Source: Catajapyx aquilonaris | Taxonomy: Eukaryota | Length of the DNA stretch: 22,125 bases | Reading direction: 5' to 3' | Assembly (NCBI GenBank): GCA_000934665.2 | Contig: JYFJ02001304.1 | Span: 62,001 to 84,125 of the forward strand | In this document: one piece after another, positions 1-21,801 of the stretch | Layout: each line of letters starts with the position of its first letter | Position numbering within the stretch: the stretch's first letter is position 1 | The notes under the pieces: model-generated | Seen by the model: only the letters and a program-made list of their open reading frames with translations | Databases searched by the model: none | Told to the model about the DNA's origin: nothing | Translations under genes and position numbers: made by a program

Positions 1-128
1 GCGCGAAACGTACACGATCAACTCCATCAGCCACGAACATATCAATTTATTCTGTAGGATTTCTCGTACAAATTGACACCTTCTGTGTAAAAATGCATTT
101 CGCATTGTCTCATTTCTATTTGAACCAG

Positions 129-8138
<8,010 letters not shown>

Positions 8139-8246: not shown

Positions 8247-8247
<1 letters not shown>

Positions 8248-8328
<81 letters not shown>
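8248..8328. repeat. (TAA)27 perfect microsatellite
   Basis: Uninterrupted TAA run starting 110 nt downstream of the RPTP stop codon. Confidence 0.98.
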
Positions 8329-8329
<1 letters not shown>

Positions 8330-8875
8330 CATCTGTATGTGATCTAGAACGTTTCAATGAGCCATTTATTACTCCACATTATGTTGAACCATGATTGTAA
8401 TGACAATTATTTCCTCCACATCATTATGTACTTCAATTTTGAAACATGACAAATATATAATGTACATTTTGCTGCCAGTAAAAACAATTAGATCGCCTTT
8501 GCATTACATGGTTCGAAACATTTTTGTTTGACTGTACATGAATGTCCCTACGGTGATTTTTATCGAACGTGTGTTCTCCAGCCAACGGATTTTCCTTCCA
8601 GTTTTTTTTTCTGGACAAAATCTGCCTGGAAACTGGTTTAATTGGCAGGATAATCGTCATCAGCGGTAAATATGGTTGCCCCAGGAGGGTCTGGGTTAGC
8701 ATTGACTAGCTTACATGGAACCCTCAAAAAAATTCATTGCTAAAGGACATTTTGGATATATGGTTCCTTTTCCAGGCTGAGTGGCCCTTATTAGTTTTAA
8801 AAAATATTTAAAGCATTGCAATTTTAAAAAAATCTGAAAATAGCTTTTCATATAGACAATCCGGCGTTCAAAAGG

Positions 8876-11608
8876 ATGCCTCCAAACACTGAAGAGATCA
8901 GCAGGAGATGCGTGGTGCCGATGTGCTCCAGCAACTGCTGCGGAGGAGGGGATTCCGGAGGACGAGGGACGTCCTTCTTCCCCTTCCCCAGCCACGAGAA
9001 GCTCCGAATGATGTGGATGCGGTCCATCCTCAAGCCAGACCATTCCTTGGTCTGCTCCAGACATTTCGACGAAGCAGACCTGGTTTCAACTGCCAACGAA
9101 GGATTGAAACTGAAGGAAAATGCTGTTCCACTGCTCAACTTGCCGCAACCTACTTCAAGAGCACCCACGAAAAATGTCCAGCGTTTACACGGAGGTTAGA
9201 ACATACTTCGCATACAAACCATATCGAAACATAACCTGAGAAGCACTTGTATGACCAATTATTAAGGAGTTGCATATTCTGCATTATTTACGTACACAAA
9301 CCCTGAGATTTTTTTTCCAATTAGCCTTCCCGCATCTGGCTCTAAGTCTGACAAGAAGTGGTTCCTCTAAATCCTTTCAGTGGTAGAAGCAGATGTAGCC
9401 ACAGCATCACCCCAGTTGATTGACTTGACCACAGAACCTTCAGATGACGAGTCGGATGCTATTGATGAGTCACCAGAATCCACTGAAAGGACCAGGGAAC
9501 CAGTGGAAGACACACGTCCAGGAGTCCAAAGTGACACTTCCACAAGCGGAGGAAATTGTGTAGTACGAGATTGCGGAAAGGAACAAGGGTAGGTTGATTG
9601 AAACTGCACCATTTTTCAGAATTAATGTGTGAGATGGGCTCATTTCGGTGCTAATTTGCAAGAGAGAGGTGTCGGTACCATCAGTATGATAGAAATTCTT
9701 ATCTGCTTCTATTCAGCATTTGGTGTCAGTCCTCATCCAGCTTTTTATTGAGGATTGATTGTTTACCAAAGTACTAATAAATTATGTAATTGCAGGAACT
9801 CGAGCAACCACTCCCAACTGGAATCTCAATCGATGCTTACCTTCTCACTGGAAGAGGTCAACGCAGCAGCTCAGAAGGAATTCGGAAATGTGCTCGTATC
9901 CATCGACATGGATCATCCTTATGCGCAATGCAAGGCGACCCAGTTCAAGTGCGGCTTGTGCGGTTTGACTTTCACCTCAAAGGATGCTGCGGCCAGTCAC
10001 GTTTGCATCGTTTCTACCAATGACCCGCTTGCAGTGGAGGGTATGCCAAGCCCATCCGCTGTTCCAAGTGTTACGCCCAGTGGGTCGTCCGAAGTTGTTG
10101 AGTTAAAGAGTACCGTGCTGTTCCAACCTTCTAATTCTGTTCTATTGCCATATGTAGTACCGATTAATTCAGAAGTGGACCCGGAATGGAAGGCTAGTTT
10201 CACAGGAGATACATGCAATATATGCGGCAAATTAATCGTAAGCATAAGGTGGAAAAAAGTTCACTACAACGATCACAAAGGAATCAGGCCATTCACGTGT
10301 GATGCATGTGGGCTGGGATTCTTTAGTAAGCAGCGTCTGAAGGAACACAAAGAAGCTCACTTGCGGGAGCCTGACCCTCATGTGGTGTATAATAGAAAAT
10401 TGACTCCTGAATGGAAGGCGAGCTTTACAGGAAATACATGCAATATATGTGGCAAAGTAATTGTAAACGTAAAGTGGAAACGATGTCACTACATCAATCA
10501 CAAAGGGATCAAGCCATTCAAGTGTGACAAATGTGGGAAGGGATTCATTGCAAAGGCGCGTCTGAAACGTCACCTGGAAGGTTGTGGGGAACTAACTCCT
10601 TATGATGGTTCATTAGCTGTTGGCGGAATCAAGGTAAAATGGAACGATAAAGCCATCAAGTCATTTTTGGAAGCGCATAAAAATGCTTTGCCAGCACATG
10701 AAGCTGTTCCGATCGATTTGCCAGCACATACAGATGCTCTGGTCACGTTATCTTTGCGATCACATACACATGCACCGATCAAGGTGTCTTTGCCAGCTCA
10801 TAAAGATGCTCCAATCATGGTGCGTAACAATGCTCTCAAGACGAAGGGGAATAAACCACTTGAATGTGAGTTCTGCGGAAAGCCTTTCACCTTCCAGTCT
10901 CGCTTGGATTATCACATGTTGAGCCACACAGGAGGAAAGTCATTCGTATGCGATGTATGCAACAAGGGGTTTCGCTTTAAAAATTCACTTCAGTTTCACA
11001 ATAGAACGTGCGTGAAGGAAGGGGAGATTCCATTGGGCGTTAAGAAACGATACGTGTGCGAAACGTGTGGAAAGGGATTTAGAAGAAAGTACGGATATGC
11101 CCATCATCGCTTTACGCATACACAAGAGAGGCCATATGTGTGCGAGATATGTTCAAAGTCTTTTATATATAAAACTGCTTTTGATGCCCATCGTTACATC
11201 CACACTGGAGAGAAGCCGCATTTGTGTGACGTATGCGGGAGGTCTTTCAGGGTCAAGGGTCAGTTGACACTCCATTACATGCGCCACACTGGGGAGAAGC
11301 CACACAGATGTGACATATGTGATAAAAGATTTCGCCTGAAAGGCGGGCTGGTTGTCCATCGCAGGATGCACACTGGGGAGAAACCCTTTCAGTGCGACAC
11401 ATGCGGGAAGAAATTCCTGATCGGATCAGCACTTCGGAGACACAAGAAAACACACAAACCCGAGAAAGTTCAGTTCACTTGCAACTCTTGTGGGCACGGA
11501 TTCTCCCGAAAGGCGGCTCTTGAGAAGCACAAGTGCGTCGCTGAGGAAGGAACGGACCTGGAGGAAACGACTGACCATGAACTTTTAGAAACTAATAGTT
11601 CATGGTGA
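8876..11608 (+). CDS. THAP-domain / C2H2 zinc-finger protein, paralogue 1 (about 779 aa)
   Basis: Exons 8876-9194, 9381-9588, 9796-11608 (phases 1 and 2; 2340 nt). THAP C2CH signature CVVPMC..FFPFP..W..VCSRHF..LKENAVP; HTGEKP-linked C2H2 fingers. Confidence 0.92.
10688..10825 (+). repeat. Degenerate in-frame 30-36-nt tandem repeat x4 (LPAH..AP) in paralogue 1
   Basis: LPAHEAVPID / LPAHTDALVTLS / LRSHTHAPIKVS / LPAHKDAPIMVR; units begin ttgccagc or ttgcgatc. Confidence 0.8.
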
Positions 11609-12081
11609 TTATTCTTACGCAGTGTCACCTGTGACTTAATCATGGACGGAAAATGAGACAACGATCCGATGTCATCGAGGTTCCTATTAAGGAGATACTA
11701 AAAAGCAACAATGAAAGAAAAGATGACGTCAGATCGTTCTCTCCTTTTCCGTACATTACCTAGTGTGTATGGCATTAAAAGCAATGATGTTGTTCATTTG
11801 CATATGACGTAATTTATTATTCAAACCCACGAAAATTGCTTTACCAAGCCATATGTTGAGAATGAATTTTCGTGACATTTTCAGCTGACGTATTGTATCG
11901 TGCTCCTGGAATAAGTTATTCCGTTGCATGAAATTGGAAGAAGTAGTTTCAGAATTAATTTGGAAAGTCAAAAAAAAAAGTCCAGTGATAAACATGATAT
12001 GTTAGGTGCAAATTTCCAGGGTTAATTATAATTATGATTCTGGATTTCAATAGGACACCTGCTGGAGTGCCTCATGGAAAT

Positions 12082-12114
12082 GTGGCGCAAAATTTTGTCA
12101 TGGCTGTACAAAAA
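12082..12114 (+). promoter_or_regulatory. Conserved upstream motif TTTTG.C(A/G)TGGCT(G/A)TACAAAAA, candidate promoter element
   Basis: Recurs about 250-330 nt upstream of the ATG of paralogues 2, 3 (15357-15389) and 4 (17772-17805) within otherwise diverged AT-rich DNA. Function is inferred. Confidence 0.5.
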
Positions 12115-12235
12115 TTCATGCCTTTGTGTTTCACAAACGTCGTTCCATTTCGGCGTCCGTTACTTTATGTCGGCTATAGTTTCCCTCCAGTTATTTCCTG
12201 GAAGGCGATGCGTGTCCAGGGCTGAGCTGGAAAAG

Positions 12236-12304
12236 GTACGGTTCCAGGCAGTCCCACAGATGCTTGCGAATCAGGCAGTGACACACTCTCTCTAATCATT
12301 ACAG
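12236..12304 (+). other. Probable 5'-UTR intron of paralogue 2 (homologues 15519-15591 and 18010-18076)
   Basis: gtac(g/a)g donor, ctaat branch-like site and cag acceptor conserved in three copies; lengths 69, 73 and 67 nt match local intron sizes. Confidence 0.65.
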
Positions 12305-12355
12305 GTACTACATAGGTGATTGATAAGCCGAGGGAAGCACCATAAGTTCCAAAGG

Positions 12356-15108
12356 ATGGTACGCTGGAGGATGGAACCATGGAAAGCATGGAAGGATGGA
12401 AACGCTGAAGAGAACAGCAGGAGATGCGTGGTGCCAATGTGCACCAGCAACTGCTCCGGAGGGGATTCCGGAGGAGGGACGGCCTTCTTCCCCTTCCCCA
12501 GCCACCAGAAGCTGCGGATGATGTGGATGTGGTCCATCCTCAAGCCAAACCATTCCTTGGTCTGCTCAAAGCATTTCGACGAGTCAGACCTGGTTTCAAC
12601 TGGCAACGGAGGATTGACGCTGAAGGAAAACGCCTTTCCGTTGTTCAACTTGCCGCAACCTACTTCACGACCAGCGACAGATAATGTCCAGCGTTTACAA
12701 CCAGGTTAGAACATGCTTCCATTGCAAACCACTTGTATAACAACAAATTAGCAGTCTGTAAATGACGAATTATGGATATTATACATTTCGTTTGCCTATC
12801 AATTAGCACCTGGCTCTAAGTCTGACAACTGTTCCTCTCAATCTTTGCAGTGGTAGAAGCAAACGTAAGGACATCGACATCCCAGTTGATTGACTTGACC
12901 GCAGGACCTTCAGGTAACGAGTTGGATGCTTTTGATGAGTCACCAGAATCCACTGAAAGGACCAGGGAACCAGTGGAAGACACACTTCCAGGTGTCCAGA
13001 GTGAAACTTCCACAAGCGGAAGAAAGGGCAAAGTAAAAAGATGTGGAAAGGCACGTTCGGACAGGTAGGTTGATTGAAACTGCACCTTTTTTTACAGAAT
13101 TAATGTGTCGCAGGAAATTTTTAGGTGAGGCACATAAAAATTGAGCATAATCTGGCAAGTTCCATGTTTGTAAGTGTGTTTAAAAAATATATATATAATT
13201 ATATGTATATCCTGGAAATGAGCTTTTTCTTAGACACACCGTGTATTTACTAAAGTATTAATGACTTTCCCTATTTGCAGGAACTCGGACAACAACATTG
13301 TCACATCCCAGCTGGAATCTCAATCGACGGTTACCTTCTCACTGGAAGCGGTCAACGCAGCAGCTCAGAAGGAATTGGAAGATGTGCCAATCGACATCGA
13401 CCATCCTTATGCGCAGAGCAAGGAGACCCAGTTCAAGTGCGGCTTGTGCGACTTGACTTTCACCTCAAAGGACACTGCGGCCAGCCATGTTTGCATCGTT
13501 TCTACTAATGACCCGCTTGCAGTGGAGGGTAGGCCAAGCCCATCCGCTGTTCCAAGTGTTACGCCCAGTGGGTCGTCCAAAGTTGTTGAGCCAAATAATA
13601 CCACACAGGTCCAACCTTCCTGTGCAGTACCGGTTAATTCAAAAGGGGCCACTGAATGGCAGGCAAGTTTCACAGGAGATAAGTGCAATTTATGTAGCGA
13701 GAGAGTAGAAGGAGTTAATTCGCAAAAACGTCACTACGACAACCACAAAACGAGCAAGCCATTTGTGTGCGAGACATGTGGGAAGAAATACGCTGGTAAG
13801 AATAGTCTGAAACATCACATGGACGTTCACTTGCTGGAATATTTTGCCGACTCGTTATCTAAAGCGGCAAGTAATAGAAAAAGGCCTGCCACGTGGAAGA
13901 CAAATTTCACCGGAGATGCATGCAATGTATGTGGCAAGATAGTAAAAGACATTAATTTGCAAAAATGTCATTACAAATATCACAAAGGGATCAAGCCATA
14001 TGCATGTGAGACATGCGGGAAGGGATATGATACTAAGTGGAGTCTGAAAATTCACAAAGAAGCTCACTTGCTGCTACGTTCTTCCAAATCTCAAGAGGCA
14101 AGTCATAGAGAATTGGCTGCCGAATGGGAGGCAAGTCATAGAGAATCGGCTGCCGAATTGGAGGCAAGTTATACCGGAAAGAAATGCAACGTATGCGGCA
14201 AGGACGTGAGTGAGAGGAGGCGGAAATGTCACTACTTCATTCATAAAGGGATCAAGCCGTATAAGTGTGACAAATGTGGGAAGGGATTTGTTGATAAGCA
14301 GAGTGTGAAACATCACCTCGTGGGACGTAAGGGACGACCTCCTTGTGATGGTTCAATACCTGATACAGGGTTATTTGAATGTGAATTCTGCGGAAAGACT
14401 TCTTCTGGCAAGGCTCGCTTGGATCGTCACGTATTGAGTCACAATAAAGGAGTCAAGTTATTTACATGCGATGTGTGTAACAAAGGGTTTTGTCTTAGTC
14501 GTTCCCTTCGGTTTCACAAGATGACCTGCGTGAAGGAGGGGGGTGTTCAGAACCTATTTGTGTGTGAGACATGCGGAAAATCATTTGTGAGAAAGAATTC
14601 ATTTATCTGTCATCGCGCAACACATGGGCCAGAGAGGCCATATGTTTGTGAGGTATGTGGAAAGTCATTTATTTGGAAGTCCACTTATGGTAAACATCGT
14701 TCCATTCATACTGGTGAGAAACCGCATTTGTGTGACGTATGTGGGGATTCTTTCCGGTCCGGATTTGAGTTGAAGCAACATTACATGCGCCACACTGGGG
14801 AGAAGCCTTACAAATGCGACATATGTGATAGAGACTTCCGCCAGAGAGCAGGGCTGGTTGCCCATCGTAGGATACACACTGGGGAGAAACCTTATCAGTG
14901 CGACACATGCGGGAAAAGTTTCAGAACATTTTCGGCAATCCTGGGACACAAGAATACCCACAAACGAGAAAAGGTCACGTTCAAATGCAACTCTTGCGGG
15001 AAAATATATTCGTGCAAGACCCGGTTGAAGAGGCACAAGTGTGTCGCTGAAGAAGGAACAGTCGTCTCGCCGGTCTCGGAGGGACTGGTTGACCAAGAAC
15101 TAAATTAG
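12356..15108 (+). CDS. THAP-domain / C2H2 zinc-finger protein, paralogue 2 (about 796 aa)
   Basis: Exons 12356-12704, 12851-13064, 13281-15108 (2391 nt). Same splice sites and phases as paralogue 1; ATG in the shared aaaggATG context. Confidence 0.92.
14095..14169 (+). repeat. In-frame 33-nt tandem repeat x2.3 in paralogue 2
   Basis: gaggcaagtcatagagaat(t/c)ggctgccgaat(g/t)g twice, then gaggcaagt: [25 protein letters not shown]. Confidence 0.93.
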
Positions 15109-15642
15109 GCACTAGTACATTGTGATTATTATTAATCATAATCAACTGTACGATCTTAGTCGCAGTGTATATGGCCTTTTTAAAAAAATAAAATAATAAA
15201 AAAGTTGTACAGCATGTGCATATTGCTGTCTGAATGAATTTTTCTAAAAGTAATTATTTAATTTTAATATCAGCTCACATGCCTTTAATATATTCTTGCA
15301 AAACCTGTTCCACACATACTTAAAATTTTGGTTATTAAGAAAACATGTCGCATTTAGTGCTATGAATTTTGGCATGGCTATACAAAAATAGTTGCCATTT
15401 TTATTTATTTTATTGTGTTGATGGCCTCCATTACTTTTGGTTGCCTAGTTTTGCCTCGTTTTGCTCCAGTTTCCTGGAAGGTCCTGAGTGCAGAAAGCTG
15501 CTGAACTGGAGAGGAAAGGTACAGTCCAGGCAGTCCCGCAGATGCGTTCCAATCAGACAACGACACACTCTAATTATTATTATTATTGCAGGTGCACATG
15601 TGATTGAAGAGGATCAGCCGAGGGAAGCACAAGTTCCAAAGG

Positions 15643-17554
15643 ATGGCTCCAAAGCCGGAAGAGATCAGGAGATGCGTGGTGCCAACGTGCACCAGCAACT
15701 GCGGAGGAGGAGGTTCAGCATCTGGTGGAGGAGGAGGGACGGCCTTCTTCCCCTTCCCCAGCCATGAGAAGCTCCGGATGATGTGGATGCGGTCCATCCT
15801 CAAGCCAGACCATTCCTTGGTCTGCTCCAGACATTTCGACGAGTCAGACCTGGTTTCAACTGGCGACCAAGGATTGAAACTGAAGGAAAATGCCTTTCCA
15901 TTGCTCAACTTGCCGCAAACGGAAAATGCCCTATGTTTACAACAAGGTTAGAACATACTTCCCATGCAAACCATGCCTAAACGTAACCTGCGAAGCACTT
16001 GCATGACAACAAATTAACCTGTAAGTGACGAATCATGCGGTTTTTTTCATTCGGTGACAATATGCACATTTTCCTCAATTAGCCGAAACACAACCGGCTC
16101 CAGGTCTGACAACTGTTTCTCTAAATCCTTTCAGTGGTAGAGGAAGACACAACCACAGAATCACCCCAGTTGATTGACTTGACCACCGAGCCTTCAGATG
16201 ACGAGTGGGATGCTATTGATGGGCCACCAGAATCCAGTGAAAGGACCAGAGAACCAGCCGATGAACCAGCCGATGACATTATTCCAGAAAGTGAACCTTC
16301 CACAATAAACGCCAGAAATTGCGAAGAACATGACTGCGGAAAGGAACAAGACGATCGGTAGGTTGATTGCAATATTGCGAAATTTTCTTGAATTAATGTG
16401 TCACGTAACTAGTATTTGGGCACATCTGGGTATGATTATTTTGTGTGACTTTAAATGCGGACAAGCCATATGTTATTGATTATTTTCTAAAATTTTATTC
16501 CTGCATCAGGAACTCGGACAACATTGTCCCATCCCAGCTGGAATCTCGATCGATGCTTACCTTCTCACTGGAAGGGGTCAACGCAGCAGCTCGGAAGGAA
16601 TTTGAAGATTATGTGCATGCATCCATCGACATGGATCATCCTTATGCGCAGAGCAATGAGGCCCAGTTCGAGTGCGACTTGTGCGGTTTGACTTTCGCCT
16701 CAAAGGATGCTGCGGCCAGTCACGTTTGCTTCTTTTCCACCATTGACCAACTAGAACTGGAGGATATGCTAAGCTCCGCTGTTCCAAGTGTTACGCCCAG
16801 TGACATCATTCCAGATTTGCCAGCTCCCAAGGGAAAAAAACCAATTGATTGCGAGTTCTGCGGAAAGACTTTTGCCAGAAAGTCTGCCTTGGATTATCAT
16901 ATGTGGAGTCACAAGGAAGGAAAGTCGTTCATATGCGACGTGTGCAACAAGGGCTATCGTTACAACCACTCGCTTAGGTATCACAAGAGAACCTGCGTGA
17001 AGGAGGGGGAGACTTCCTTGGACCCTAAGAAGGAATATACTTGTAAGACATGTGGGGAAACATTTGCGGGAAAGCATCGATTGTTCGTTCATCGCTTCAC
17101 ACATGAGAGGCCATATGTGTGTGGGATATGTTCAAAGTCATTTATGCGGAAGTCTTCTTTTGATGTCCATCGTTCCATCCATACGGGAGAGAAGCCGCAT
17201 TTGTGTGACGTATGTGGGAAATCTTTCAGGCTCAAGAATGAGTTGAAGTCTCATTACATGCTCCACACTGGGGAGAAGCCATACAAATGCGACATATGTG
17301 ATAGAGACTTCCGCCAGAGAGGATCGCTGGCTGCCCATCGCAGGGTACACACCGGGGAGAAACCCTATCAGTGCGACACATGCGGGAAGGATTTCAGAAC
17401 TTCTTCAGCTCTCACGGCACATAAGAAGACGCACAAGCCGGAAGACGTCGAGCTCAAATGTAACCGTTGCGGGAAAAGATTTAAAAGAAAGGCAGCTTTG
17501 GTTAAGCACAAGTGTGTCGCTGAGGAAGGAAACCGTCTCGGAGGGACTGGCTGA
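15643..17554 (+). CDS. THAP-domain / C2H2 zinc-finger protein, paralogue 3 (about 523 aa, lacks the EWxASFTG modules)
   Basis: Exons 15643-15946, 16135-16357, 16510-17554 (1572 nt). THAP and 8-finger array intact; last few codons are frameshifted relative to the paralogues. Confidence 0.9.
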
Positions 17555-17633
17555 CCATGAAGTAAATTAGAAACAAATAGTTCATGATGGGGATTATTCT
17601 AGTGAGCTTCATACGTGTACATGGCGTTGGAAT

Positions 17634-17639
17634 AATAAA
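17634..17639 (+). terminator. Polyadenylation signal AATAAA, paralogue 3 (equivalents: 15187-15200 in paralogue 2; ATTAAA 11774-11779 in paralogue 1)
   Basis: About 80 nt after the stop, in a shared context gtgta.(a)tgg...aataaa..gttgt. Confidence 0.65.
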
Positions 17640-17802
17640 GTTGTGTGCCATGTGTTTATATATAATGTCATTTTTATTGTTCATACCCATGGCCTGACTG
17701 CTCCTTACAAAAATTATGGGACATTTACTATTAAATTAATATTTCAGTTTTAAAAATTTTAGTCACTATAAGTGGCACATATTTTGTCGTGGCTGTACAA
17801 AA

Positions 17803-17858
17803 AAATCGATAAATCGATAAAGAAATCGAGAAAAAATCGAAAATCGAAAAAAATCGAA
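17803..17858. repeat. Six clustered AAATCGA units upstream of paralogue 4, two forming AATCGATA (DRE-like)
   Basis: aaatcgataaatcgataaagaaatcgagaaaaaatcgaaaatcgaaaaaaatcgaa. Confidence 0.75.
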
Positions 17859-18124
17859 TGTCTACATTCAAAATGGCGTCCGTTCCTTTTAGTCTTTTTT
17901 TTGGAATTCGTCTTGTTTCACTTTAAGTCATCCAGAGAGGATCAGAGTGGCCTGGAGGAAGTTTCCTGGAAGGCGATGCGTGTCCAGGGCTGAGCTGGAA
18001 GCGGAAAAAGTACGGTTCCAGGCAGTCCCACAGATGCGTGCCAATCAGGCAGTGACACTCTCTCTAATCATGACAGGTACATGGTGATTGAAGAGGACTA
18101 TAGCTGCACCACAAGTTCCAAAGG

Positions 18125-21100
18125 ATGGCTCCAAACACTGAGGAAATCAGGAGATGCGTGGTGCCAATGTGCACCAGCAACTGCGGAGGAGGTTCGACAT
18201 GTGGCGGAGGTTCAACGGCGTACTTCCCCTTCCCCAGCCACCAGAAGCTGCGGATGATGTGGATGCGGTCCATCCTCAAGCCAAACCATTCCTTGGTCTG
18301 CTCCAGACATTTTGATGAATCAGACCTGGTTTCAACTGGTGACAAAGGATTGAAACTGAAGGAAAATGCCTTTCCATTGCTCAACTTGCCGCAGCCTACT
18401 TCAAGACCAGCGACGGAAGATGTCCAGCGTTTAGAACGAGGTACTTCGAATGCAAACCATGTCGAAACATAACCTGAGAAGCACTTGCATGACAAATTAA
18501 TGTGTAAATGACGTATATGTGAATTACAATGAAGCCAGAGAGAGACACTAAAAATAAGTCTAATAACTGGTTCTGTACATCTGGCAGTGGTGGAAGCGGA
18601 CGTAACCACAGCATCGTCGCAGTTGATTGACTTGACCACAGGACCTTCAGATAACCAGTCGGATGCTATTGATGACTTGCCAGAATCAGACGAAAGGACC
18701 ACGGAACCAGCGGATGACATTCTTCCAGTTGTCCCGAGCGAAGCAACATGTTCCAGAATTAAAATGTGATACATGTTCATTTCGTTGAGCTCGTGTTTGA
18801 AGCGAAAGCTGTTGTGCAGGATATTTTTAATTCTAATTTAGTGCTCAGTATTTGTCGTCACCATATTAGGAACAAATTTTTGTTAAACAATGATCTTGCT
18901 TGGAAATGAACTTTTCTTAAGCGTACTGTGCATTTACCCAAGTATTAATGGCTGACCCATTTACAGGAAATCGAGCAACCACATTGTTGCCTCCCAGCTG
19001 GAATCTCAATCGACGGTTACCTTCTCACTGGAAGAGGTCAACGCAGCAGCTCAAGAGGAATTCGAAGATGTGCATGTCCCCATCGACATGGATCATCCTT
19101 ATGCGCAGAGCAAGGAGACGCAGTTCAAGTGCGGCTTGTGCGGTTTGACTTTCGCCTCAAAGGACACTGCGGCCAGTCATATTTGCATAATTTCTACCAA
19201 TGACCGGCTTGCAGTGGAGGGTATGCCAAGCCCAGCCGCTGTTCCAAGTGTTACGCCCAAAGTTGTTGAGTCAAAGAGTTACGTGGAATTCCAACCTTCT
19301 AATGTAATTCTGCTGCCCCATGCAGTACCGCTTGATTCAAAATTGGTTCCTGAATGGAAGGCAAGTTTCACAGGAGATAAATGCAATATATGCGGCAAAG
19401 TAATAGAATGGATTGATTTGCAAGAATGTCACTACAACAGCAACCACAAAATTACCGAGTCACATGTATGTGAGACATGTGGGATTGGATTTGTTGCTGA
19501 GGAAACTCTGAAAAAGCACAAGGCCACTGTTCACTTGACGGACTCTTTAGCCACTGTTCACTTGCCGGACTCTTTAGCCACTGTTCACTTGCCGGACTCT
19601 TTAGCCAGCTCGTTATCTCCTGTGGGAAGTAATAGAGAATTGGCTCCTGAATGGATAGCAAGCTTTACCGGAATGAAATGCAACTTATGTGGCAAGGATG
19701 TGAGTCAGAGGTGGCGAAAATGTCACTACCACAATCACAAAGGGATCAAGCCGTATAAGTGTGAGACATGTGGGAAGGGATTTTCTACTAAGTCACGTCT
19801 GAAATATCACAAAGCTTGTCACTTGTCCCCCTTTCATTTAATACATCATGAGGTACGTAATATAAAATTGGTTCCTGAGTGCAAGCCACAGTTCACAAAA
19901 GATACACACAATATGCATGGCAAAGTAACAGACGACACCGATTTGCAAAAACGTCACGACAACAACCAGGAAATGACCAACGAAATACGTGAAACATTCA
20001 AGAAGGGATACGTCCGTAAGACAGATCTGAAATGTCACAAAGAGGTTCACACGCTGGAACCTTCAGCCAACTCATCAGAGATGCGGAGTAATATAAAATT
20101 GTTTCCTGAATGGAAGTCGAGTTTCGCAGGAGATAAATGTAATATATGTGGCCAAGTAATAGAAGGGATTAATTTCCAAAAACTTCACTACTTTGTACAC
20201 ACCGGGATCAAGCCATATCAGTGCAAGAAATGTGGAATTGGATACCTCAGTAAGGCAGATCTGAAGAGTCACAATGTAGTTCACCTGCAGCCTGCCAACT
20301 CATCACGTCAAGTGGCAAGTAAGGTAAAATTGACACCTGAACGGAAGGCAAGCTATACTGGAACGACATGTCACCTCGAGGGACATGAAGGACGACCTCC
20401 TTGTGATGGTTCAAGAACTGCTGCGGCAAGCCAGGTCAAGGTAGATTGGTATGCAATAATTGCAGATTTGCCAGCAGATACAGTGGCTCCGGACAAGGTT
20501 CCAGAGGAGAAAGATATACTTGAATGTGAGTTGTGCGGAAAGACTTACCTTTTCAAGTCTCACATGGATCGTCATGTGATGAGTCACATGGGAAAGACTT
20601 TCACATGTGATGTGTGTAACAAGCAGTATACTCATAAGGATACTCTTAAGAAGCACAAGAGAACCTGCGGGAAGGAAGGGGAGATTCCTTTGGAGATTTT
20701 GAAGCCACATGCGTGTAAGAAATGTGGGAAAAGATTTGCGAAAAAGTCTGCGCTTGCCAATCATCTCTTAACACATGGGACTACAAGAGAGAGGCCATAC
20801 GTGTGCAAAATATGTTCAAAGGCATTTATTTGGAAGGCGTCTTTTGATGCACATCATTACATCCATACGGGAGAGAAGCCGCATTTGTGTGATTTTTGCG
20901 GTAGAACTTTCAGGGTCAAGGGTCAGTTGACCCAACATTACAGGCGACACACTGGGGAGAAGCCATACAGATGTGAAACATGTGATAAAAGATTTCGCAT
21001 GAAAGCAGCCCTGATTATCCATCGCAGAGTGCACACCGGGGAAAGACCTTATCAATGCGACACATGCGGGAAGAAATTCGTAACTCAAGCCGCACTTCAC

Positions 21101-21244
21101 AGACACAAGGGAACTCACAAACCTGGAAAAGCCGCATTCACATGCAACTCTTGTGGGTACAAATTTGCCCGAAAGGCCGCTTTAGCGAGGCACAAGTGTG
21201 CCGCTGAAGAAGGAACAGCCGCGACCGACCATGAACTAAATTAG
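18125..21244 (+). CDS. THAP-domain / C2H2 zinc-finger protein, paralogue 4 (about 923 aa if a cryptic donor at 18766 is used)
   Basis: Exons 18125-18440, 18588-(18765?), 18967-21244. THAP exon and ZF exon are intact. The gtaggt donor of exon 2 seen in paralogues 1-3 is absent, so the exon 2-3 join is uncertain. Confidence 0.78.
19523..19607 (+). repeat. In-frame 27-nt tandem repeat x3 in paralogue 4
   Basis: gccactgttcacttg(a/c)cggactcttta three times: ATVHL(T/P)DSL. Confidence 0.95.
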
Positions 21245-21337: not shown

Positions 21338-21801
21338 CATATTATGATTACATTATATTATTATTACAGTATATTATACATTATATTATACATTACCGGT
21401 ATATTATTATATTACATTATATATTACATTATATTTACATATTATTATACATATATTATATTACATTATATTTACATATTATTATACATATATTATATTA
21501 CATTATATTTACATACCGGTATTATATTACATATTATATTACATTATATTTACATACCGGTATTATATTACATATTATATTACATTATATTTACATATTA
21601 TATTACATATTATATGACATTATATTTACATATATTATATTACATTATATTTACATATATTATTATTACATTATATTTGCATATTACATTATATTTACAT
21701 ATATTATTATTACATTATATTTGCATATTACATTATATTTACATATATTATTATTACATTATATTTGCATATTATATTACATATTATTATATTATTAATT
21801 A
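21338..21801. repeat. AT-rich low-complexity satellite built from ATTAT / TTACAT units
   Basis: About 460 nt of attatattacattatatttacat variants; G is almost absent except in accggt and tgcat variants. Confidence 0.95.

Follow-up and report, generated by a model that had tools for sequence, protein, structure and literature searches.

The window analysed here, a stretch of 22,125 nucleotides from Catajapyx aquilonaris (contig JYFJ02001304.1, positions 62,001 to 84,125; G000:C554:62001-84125 in the notation used below, where G000 is the assembly of 286 Mb and 20,583 contigs and C numbers denote contigs), carries at 8876-21244, on the plus strand and in head-to-tail order, four genes (g1 to g4) that join a THAP domain to an array of C2H2 zinc fingers. 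Their putative exon models were built from GT-AG splice signals and open frames, and display in each gene a THAP exon followed by a short acidic exon 2 and by a single terminal poly-C2H2 exon (Table 1). All four first exons score 41-48 bits against the Pfam THAP profile (PF05485, cut-off 23.9), the terminal exons (1813, 1828, 1045 and 2278 nt) match C2H2 families only, and the spliced open frames of g1, g2 and g3 comprise 779, 796 and 523 amino acids. Pfam scores and open frames are in agreement with the organization proposed in an earlier sequence-only reading, whose finger-exon range of 1045-2278 nt is reproduced by the measured exons and whose quoted near-identical THAP core motif is present as written. 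The same reading took all four as three-exon genes, and this stands for g1 to g3; the exon-2 donor GTAGGT, common to these three and to one upstream paralogue, is lost in g4, the 923-residue frame of which requires a weak donor (AAT/GTGATA) at 18766. Because the family donor is gone and this substitute is needed, g4 may be decaying.

Table 1. Features of the four THAP-finger genes, in window positions (SIM, SUMO-interacting motif; UTR, untranslated region).
Feature	Position	Strand	Basis or further detail
g1 exon 1, short-loop THAP variant (core 8909-9145)	8876..9194	+	Pfam PF05485, 47.6 bits
g1 exon 2, acidic linker; SIM-like LIDLT 9416-9430	9381..9588	+	gene model, motif
g1 exon 3	9796..11608	+	FSLE.VNAAA motif 9842-9871; HCF-1-binding-type DHPY 9911-9922
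g1 exon 3 fingers: a single finger plus two W-led pairs, 8-finger block	block 10862-11536	+	Pfam, model
g2 putative 5'-UTR intron	12236..12304	+	conserved donor motif and alignment; sequence inference
g3 putative 5'-UTR intron	~15519-15591	+	donor motif, alignment
g4 putative 5'-UTR intron	~18010-18076	+	donor motif, alignment
g2 exon 1, THAP variant (core 12425-12655)	12356..12704	+	Pfam, 41.2 bits
g2 exon 2, acidic linker; LIDLT 12886-12900	12851..13064	+	gene model, motif
g2 exon 3	13281..15108	+	FSLE.VNAAA-type motif 13336-13365; DHPY 13399-13410
g2 exon 3 fingers: three finger pairs (one without W), 8-finger block	block 14377-15042	+	Pfam, model
g3 exon 1, THAP variant (core 15673-15915)	15643..15946	+	Pfam, 43.2 bits
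g3 exon 2, acidic linker; LIDLT 16170-16184	16135..16357	+	gene model, motif
g3 exon 3	16510..17554	+	FSLE.VNAAA-type motif 16562-16591; DHPY 16634-16645
g3 exon 3 fingers: zero W-led finger pairs, 8-finger block	block 16847-17515	+	Pfam, model
g4 exon 1, THAP variant (core 18155-18391)	18125..18440	+	Pfam, 41.8 bits
g4 exon 2; LIDLT 18623-18637	18588..18765	+	family donor lost; weak in-frame GT 18766
g4 exon 3	18967..21244	+	FSLE.VNAAA-type motif 19022-19051; DHPY 19091-19102
g4 exon 3 fingers: three recognisable W-led finger pairs, 8-finger block	block 20522-21199	+	Pfam, model

The terminal exons of g1 to g4 contain 11, 11, 7 and 12 C2H2 matches by strict scoring and 13, 14, 9 and 15 by relaxed scoring. 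Their variation in length comes mostly from a W-led two-finger unit, present in 2, 3, 0 and at least 3 copies, downstream of which lies an 8-finger block common to the four genes. This W-led pair was also considered as a new fold and rejected as such, its predicted structure consisting of two ordinary C2H2 fingers plus a short extra helix.

The THAP domain of these genes and of their relatives in the genome (a family delimited below) keeps its fold. The zinc ligands C, C, C and H, together with W, F and P residues, are invariant in 25/25 aligned family copies, the last P being kept in at least 90%, and the model of the g4 domain, the one used for both monomer and dimer predictions, retrieves only THAP structures as top matches with Foldseek and VIA-align (3KDE: Z 7.1, root-mean-square deviation 2.6, 67 residues aligned). 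Residues 24-54 show a ratio of nonsynonymous to synonymous rates (omega) of 0.14, the glycine loop alone being unconstrained (omega 1.24), and positive selection in the THAP exon is unsupported (M1a vs M2a, P=0.1).

What is reduced is the basic surface. Relative to THAP1, the residues RRKN and one further residue of loop 3 are absent, leaving this loop ~5 residues shorter, a feature kept among copies just 35-45% identical; Lys24 aligns to Pro (position 24 being Pro in 38/51 family domains and Arg in 1), and the alignment has no equivalent of the basic loop 4. The median net charge is -1 in 47 family domains vs +7 in ordinary ones (30 from the same genome and 29 from the library of protein representatives described below; P=5.5e-13), and a check of the family for the basic DNA-binding surface, defined by Lys/Arg24, loop 3 and basic loop 4, did not find it. 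Lys24 of THAP1 touches bases and its replacement in K24A eliminates specific binding, while loops 3 and 4 of that protein also make contact with DNA (PMC2879526). Since loop 3 is shortened, Lys24 is mostly replaced by Pro and the net charge lies near zero, we infer that DNA binding by the variant THAP is lost or strongly weakened. The kinship with the domain by which the P-element transposase binds DNA, on which the sequence-only reading had leaned, consequently points the other way, as this THAP is devoid of much of the surface in question; no transposase catalytic domain follows it either, the later exons matching zinc-finger families only in Pfam. Some observations weigh against a loss of binding: the position of Lys24 is taken by Thr in human THAP11 and by Pro in 25/228 library domains, so that this change alone proves nothing, and equivalents of Lys46-Pro47 and Ser52 are retained in loop 3 of g1 to g4 (ILKP, HS).

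Structure prediction suggests that the domain pairs with itself. Two copies of the g4 THAP with zinc gave dimer scores of 0.60, 0.60 and 0.61, vs 0.02 for the highest-scoring of three controls, with at least 91% contact agreement among runs and a predicted local distance difference test score (pLDDT) of at least 76. The mark used to call dimers was passed in calibration by 21/30 microbial dimers and 0/23 single chains, and by 17/29 eukaryotic dimers (animals 7/16) and 0/30 single chains. The surest contacts bring residues 47-51 to residues 23-27 of the partner and W37 to partner residues 74-75, while M38, I41 and L42 meet across chains at the predicted axis; 90% or more of the 25 family copies conserve M38 and I41. 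Because strands 24-25 and 48-50 form a sheet within one chain in THAP structures, these predicted contacts are read as a swap, the variant apparently pairing as a domain-swapped dimer at its shortened loop; shorter hinge loops favour domain swapping in general. Several aspects count against this pairing: among eukaryotic dimers without a solved relative only 1/7 reached the mark, the controls took in no ordinary THAP, the run used no alignment and, unlike the calibration, included zinc, and a fold for the single chain is likewise obtained with AlphaFold2 (pLDDT 74.5; 66 over residues 41-50). Known THAP dimers form mainly via C-terminal coiled coils, although THAP9 and THAP12 oligomerise via N-terminal regions (PMC13631171), and nothing further on dimers came from PMC11295075.

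The predicted dimer buries the beta-strands and the N-terminal tail that contact DNA in THAP1, and this bears on the possibility that g1 to g4 encode ordinary two-domain factors, the THAP of which would still bind DNA with altered specificity, help the fingers and bring HCF-1 to promoters. The intact fold and zinc ligands, the loop-3 residues retained in g1 to g4, the presence of an HCF-1-binding-type motif and the existence of THAP-plus-finger proteins in many animals are what such factors would show. Nonetheless, the near-zero charge, the deletion of the basic residues of loop 3, the want of a basic loop-4 equivalent and the burial of the DNA-contacting elements fit them poorly, and we consider them an unlikely explanation.

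The variant is not confined to the window. A Pfam THAP profile search of the genome returned 282 candidates, 150 of which were scored, so that the counts below are not exhaustive, and four protein searches of the genome recovered near-identical sets of 54-56 places. Among the stretches examined, 108 THAP matches were classified, 51 of them as family-type, on 28 contigs, and 57 as others; allelic contigs may be among these 28, as C6510 and C2688 are 93-95% alike over long stretches. Contig C554 itself holds 11 THAP-finger genes, the seven beyond g1 to g4 all lying upstream on the same strand, with a receptor tyrosine phosphatase gene inside the array; the cluster of four first described is thus correct for the window and too small for the contig. 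At least two fingers lie within 4.5 kb downstream of 37/48 evaluable family THAPs vs 2/42 ordinary THAPs, the latter drawn from the top of the Pfam list (Fisher P=5e-13). About eight family THAPs (e.g. C783:65835, C6703:2774, C4082:4130, C3169:9399) have no finger array in reach and no long frame downstream; family THAPs of this kind are remnants, THAP-only genes or assembly gaps. The inverted duplication at G000:C24:24407-31950 contains ordinary THAP exons and, 550-700 bp downstream of them, short-loop ones, a disposition that may correspond to double-THAP genes in which one domain is basic and the other is not.

In a quick maximum-likelihood tree of 129 domains and 90 columns, 49/49 short-loop domains and one further domain of this genome form a clade (Shimodaira-Hasegawa-like approximate likelihood ratio test 94) with 0/30 library domains inside. 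Two of its domains would serve as natural controls for the dimer model: that at G000:C8397:854-1123 has the short loop, retains Lys24 and branches as sister to all other members, and that at G000:C1466:43128-43418 has a long loop and yet lies inside it. Some copies are damaged, those on C2688, C6510 and C4941 containing stops, frameshifts or insertions, and C554 bears a remnant.

A profile of 25 family THAPs gave 4667 matches at E<=0.001 among the 1.84 billion representatives of the protein library. Details of relatives refer throughout to the best 150 of these matches, beyond which weaker relatives are possible. The best single library domain among them reaches 64 bits, vs 64-100 for intact family members outside the profile, and a W-to-C spacing of 13 is found in 46/51 family domains vs 2/228 library domains. 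Since library domains score no higher and rarely share this spacing, the library contains no close relative. In agreement with this, a search with the g4 THAP returned no relative at E<=0.001 among 388 longer candidates, and the family profile retrieved five ordinary THAP proteins from 8000 scored candidates. One candidate, P0161, was rejected as a member, its 53% identity covering a short stretch only and its best domain scoring 17 bits.

The domain order itself is widespread. At least four fingers are present in 18 of the best 150 library proteins, and the THAP plus poly-C2H2 proteins among them come from a snail, a tardigrade, a tick and several insects (butterflies, a moth, a beetle and thrips). 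The order of domains is shared, for example, by Maniola jurtina XP_045781417.1, Mythimna separata KAJ8706533.1, Frankliniella fusca KAK3914106.1 and Rhipicephalus appendiculatus KAL1487356.1, but the loops in these other animals' proteins are of ordinary length and they fall outside the short-loop clade. In Drosophila, CG6689 and CG10431 join a THAP to a ZAD and fingers (PMC9810180). As judged from sequence, the combination of THAP and fingers is already known in other animals, among whose library proteins the short-loop variant was not found. THAP expansions as such are common (PMC10027918; PMC13631171), but neither an expanded family of THAP-finger genes like this one nor a domain-swapped THAP was found described in the literature searched, most subscription journals and supplements lying outside it; these genes may figure as finger genes in tables of species, for instance in those of PMC10547256. 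The suggestion that the cluster represents a lineage-specific, rapidly diversifying family is upheld on expansion, with 51 copies on 28 contigs, and, as far as the library reaches, on lineage restriction of the variant, not as regards a domain order found in many animals.

Selection on the fingers was evaluated with a codon model of the GY94 type on 229 codons, those of the 8-finger block in eight young paralogues, leaving out the broken or partial copies on C6510, C2688, C4941 and C14862 and the variable W-led finger pairs. The 32 codons for base-contacting residues (helix positions -1, 2, 3 and 6) have an omega of 1.73 (P=4e-5 against 1), vs 0.95 at helix positions -2, 1 and 5 and 0.33 at the 173 framework codons. 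The contact-codon value stays within 1.62-1.94 over three codon-frequency models and five subsets (1.62-1.82 over codon frequencies), is 1.62 for g1 to g4 alone (P=0.005) and exceeds 1 in 26/28 paralogue pairs. Site models concur (M2a over M1a, P=0.001; M8 over M8a, P=2e-4), and contact positions make up 18/42 flagged sites vs 32/229 positions overall (P=1e-7). A second subfamily, of three genes on C4875 and C1323, gives a contact-codon omega of 2.68 (P=2.6e-7); the pair C7487 vs C6080 is saturated and gives no information on selection. Against positive selection stands the finding that a synonymous rate fitted separately to contact codons lowers omega to 1.41 (P=0.11) and 1.55 (P=0.18); under such a rate neither the first nor the second subfamily is significantly above 1. 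The concentration of change at base-contacting positions is therefore firm, and an omega above 1 likely but model-dependent. The fastest change at base-contacting residues is also reported for KRAB and FiNZ genes (PMC10547256), unlike ZAD-ZNFs, in which selection acts mainly on linkers (PMC7655104).

The two halves of the genes differ in history. Mean synonymous divergence is 0.25 for the THAP, 0.17 for the head of exon 3 and 0.45 for the finger block, and trees of the 5' and 3' halves reject each other (approximately unbiased test, P=0.016 and 1.5e-6), pointing to paralogues that are mosaics, with 5' halves partly homogenised by exchange among them. Near-identity of the THAP cores, which the sequence-only reading took as a mark of a constant module, is in such mosaics no proof of constraint by itself and is partly due to the low synonymous divergence of the 5' half; the low omega of the core does show constraint. 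These data also bear on a mostly neutral turnover, in which the likeness of the 5' halves would be maintained by unequal crossing-over and gene conversion, with drift of redundant copies at unconstrained finger positions. It would account for the uneven synonymous divergence and the conflicting trees, for an omega not significantly above 1 under class-specific synonymous rates, and for the damage to g4 and several other copies. However, it is hard to reconcile with purifying selection on the framework and on the THAP core, with a variant loop kept across such divergent copies, with 14/14 neutral simulations on mosaic trees that gave an omega of at most 1.30, below that observed, and with the recurrence of the pattern in two independent subfamilies, so that we hold it to be improbable. 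The rapidly diversifying family of the sequence-only reading is borne out by the broken copies, by the single clade of THAP variants and by fast change at base-contacting positions in two subfamilies, with the reservation that omega above 1 depends on the model.

Short motifs follow the THAP. The word DHPY, present in 4/4 window genes, fits the HCF-1-binding consensus [DE]HxY (Asp/Glu-His-X-Tyr; PMC13631171), and motifs of this HCF-1-binding (HBM) type occur in 10/12 young and 9/39 older copies (antisense, 1 and 1), with shuffle means of 0.6 for young and 2.0 for older copies (maximum 5); in the older copies they lie at different places. LIDLT is found in 11/12 young and 0/39 older copies. It follows the general SIM pattern, and SUMO is linked to SetDB1-type silencing in insects. 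Together with its acidic tail, LIDLT resembles the SUMO-binding PIAS2 peptide VDVIDLTIESS (PMC9071424). An unnamed motif, S[LP]E.VN, is present in 10/12 young copies, 6/39 older copies and 0/42 ordinary THAP loci. Counts in young copies are not independent, as these share recent ancestry. Recruitment of HCF-1 and SUMO by the linker is, on the strength of these motifs, what we infer, although not every HBM binds HCF-1 (PMC13631171) and LIDLT is missing from 39/39 older copies. As a constant module, the short motifs thus hold in part: the HBM is typical of ordinary THAP factors, and the SIM-like motif is confined to the young subfamily. A motif of the CtBP type, for which PxDLS is the pattern, was rejected, with 3/51 family copies having it and none of g1 to g4, and LIDLT being devoid of the Pro of PxDLS. 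Two further observations concern motif-like words elsewhere on the contig. The finger exon at G000:C554:42568-44307 has a head with five acidic-hydrophobic SIM-like repeats (DDVIEFV type), and a 33-bp tandem repeat at G000:C554:32565-32893, two frames of which give repeated NDHEY (an HBM-like word), is probably non-coding; sitting after a finger exon, it was excluded as HBM evidence.

Considering these data together, we favour, with confidence a little above an even balance, that g1 to g4 are young members of a family restricted to this lineage and evolving by birth and death, which encodes sequence-specific regulators of chromatin whose parts divide the labour. The C2H2 array would read DNA and be retuned after each duplication, through change at contact positions and through gain and loss of two-finger units. 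The THAP would have its zinc-binding fold kept by purifying selection and its basic DNA-binding surface lost, and would most likely act as a pairing module, probably as a domain-swapped dimer favoured by the short loop, doing the job done by the ZAD in insects. The linker would recruit cofactors via its HCF-1-binding motif and, in the young subfamily, also via a SIM.

A narrower version of this explanation is KRAB-like surveillance, in which the fingers would chase transposons and silence them via SUMO-dependent heterochromatin. Selection at base-contacting positions, as in KRAB and FiNZ genes and unlike ZAD-ZNFs, the likeness of LIDLT and its acidic tail to the PIAS2 peptide, and the turnover seen in broken copies and mosaic paralogues are consistent with it. 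It agrees less well with the observations that the HBM marks THAP factors bringing HCF-1 to promoters, that tethered THAP3 activates via its HBM (PMC13631171), that the SIM-like motif is not family-wide, and that expansion of finger genes in Hemiptera did not track repeat content (PMC6444547); it is accordingly a possibility to which we give clearly less than an even chance. Further down the same line, a transposase-related domain would have become a domain-swapped dimerisation and effector module by a short loop deletion, founding an independent KRAB/ZAD-like family whose young branch, with adaptively changing fingers, targets transposons through SUMO-dependent silencing; taken as a whole, this chain of events seems unlikely to us.

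The family works like the KRAB-, FiNZ- and ZAD-finger families and is a member of none. With the KRAB-ZNFs of tetrapods and the FiNZ-ZNFs of cyprinid fish (Wells et al. 2023, PMC10547256) it shares a layout in which a small N-terminal module has an exon to itself and a single terminal exon encodes the poly-C2H2 array, together with clustering in tandem, birth and death of copies and contact residues that change fastest; it differs in having the THAP fold as module and in numbering ~50 copies rather than hundreds. No KRAB match was obtained at E<=0.1 in exons 1 and 3 of g1 to g4 or in exon 2 of g1 and g2, and there was no FiNZ match either. A TRIM28-like partner and transposon binding are features of the KRAB system, the present family being known here from sequence alone. 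With insect ZAD-ZNFs, including the two Drosophila proteins mentioned above (PMC9810180), it has in common an N-terminal zinc-binding module, a disordered linker, a C2H2 array, lineage-specific clusters, and dimerisation of the module, known for the ZAD and predicted for the THAP variant. It differs from them in bearing the THAP in place of the ZAD, not added to it, and in selection on contact residues. No zf-AD match (PF07776) was found in the g1 to g4 exons searched or on contig C554, and 9/27 candidates match in the genome.

Dimerisation in architectural proteins is driven by the ZAD (PMC9810180), which raises the alternative that the family encodes insulators or architectural proteins in the manner of Pita and Zw5. 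Their THAP dimers would bridge distant finger-bound sites, and diversification of the paralogues would retune genome organisation, not defence. The predicted homodimer and the few ZAD matches in the genome, leaving room for a substitute, agree with it. Contact-residue selection and rapid copy loss, by contrast, fit conserved roles poorly, and the near-identical THAPs would permit mixed dimers among paralogues. ZAD proteins are not known to form such mixed dimers. We regard this alternative as quite unlikely.

THAP1, THAP11 and the P-element transposase's DNA-binding domain are alike to the family domain in C2CH ligands, W/F/P core and fold, and THAP transcription factors also in the N-terminal position of the THAP and in a downstream [DE]HxY motif; a coiled coil follows the THAP there, a finger array here, and the family THAP departs from theirs in its shorter loop 3, its Pro for Lys24 in most copies and its near-zero charge. 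Finally, the ZF271-like/APEZ expansions of Hemiptera (PMC6444547) resemble the family in tandem clusters of 4-8 genes, pseudogenes and finger turnover, but have no domain besides fingers.

The N-terminal modules and co-repressors of large invertebrate finger families constitute an open question (PMC6444547 for insects; PMC10547256 for animals), to which this family brings a named module and three handles, namely the dimer interface, the HCF-1-binding motif and the SIM. If the dimer is true, it would provide a clear case of a DNA-binding domain turned into a protein-pairing domain, and Pfam THAP matches could no longer be taken as DNA-binding by default.

The remaining observations concern the neighbourhood on C554. 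The phosphatase gene inside the array is multi-exon, with EGF-like, FN3 and PTP parts, and spans window positions 1-8138 and G000:C554:60326-62000; a long frame upstream at this gene matches Pfam Methyltransf_FA, and no second copy of the gene was detected among the genome stretches examined. Regions upstream of the THAP-finger genes are of two types: that of g1 (window 8516-8729) is 77-82% like those of the three genes preceding the phosphatase gene, and those of g2 to g4 (12150-12305, 15430-15595 and 17950-18080) are of a different common type with a putative non-coding exon. Three finger exons without a THAP exon of their own (G000:C554:34243-39066) come after a gene at 30287-32119, and may represent either alternative last exons or genes from which the THAP has disappeared. 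A TDRD9/spindle-E-like helicase gene, which we take to belong to the PIWI-interacting RNA pathway, occupies G000:C554:12044-21200 (52% to bird TDRD9 over 91 amino acids) and ends ~1 kb ahead of the first THAP-finger gene, an adjacency perhaps due to chance. Two intron-poor ionotropic-receptor-like frames (Pfam Lig_chan) are located at G000:C554:3300-8853, and g1 to g4 are flanked by an (AAT)n microsatellite at window 8247-8328 and by an AT-rich degenerate tandem repeat at 21350-21800.

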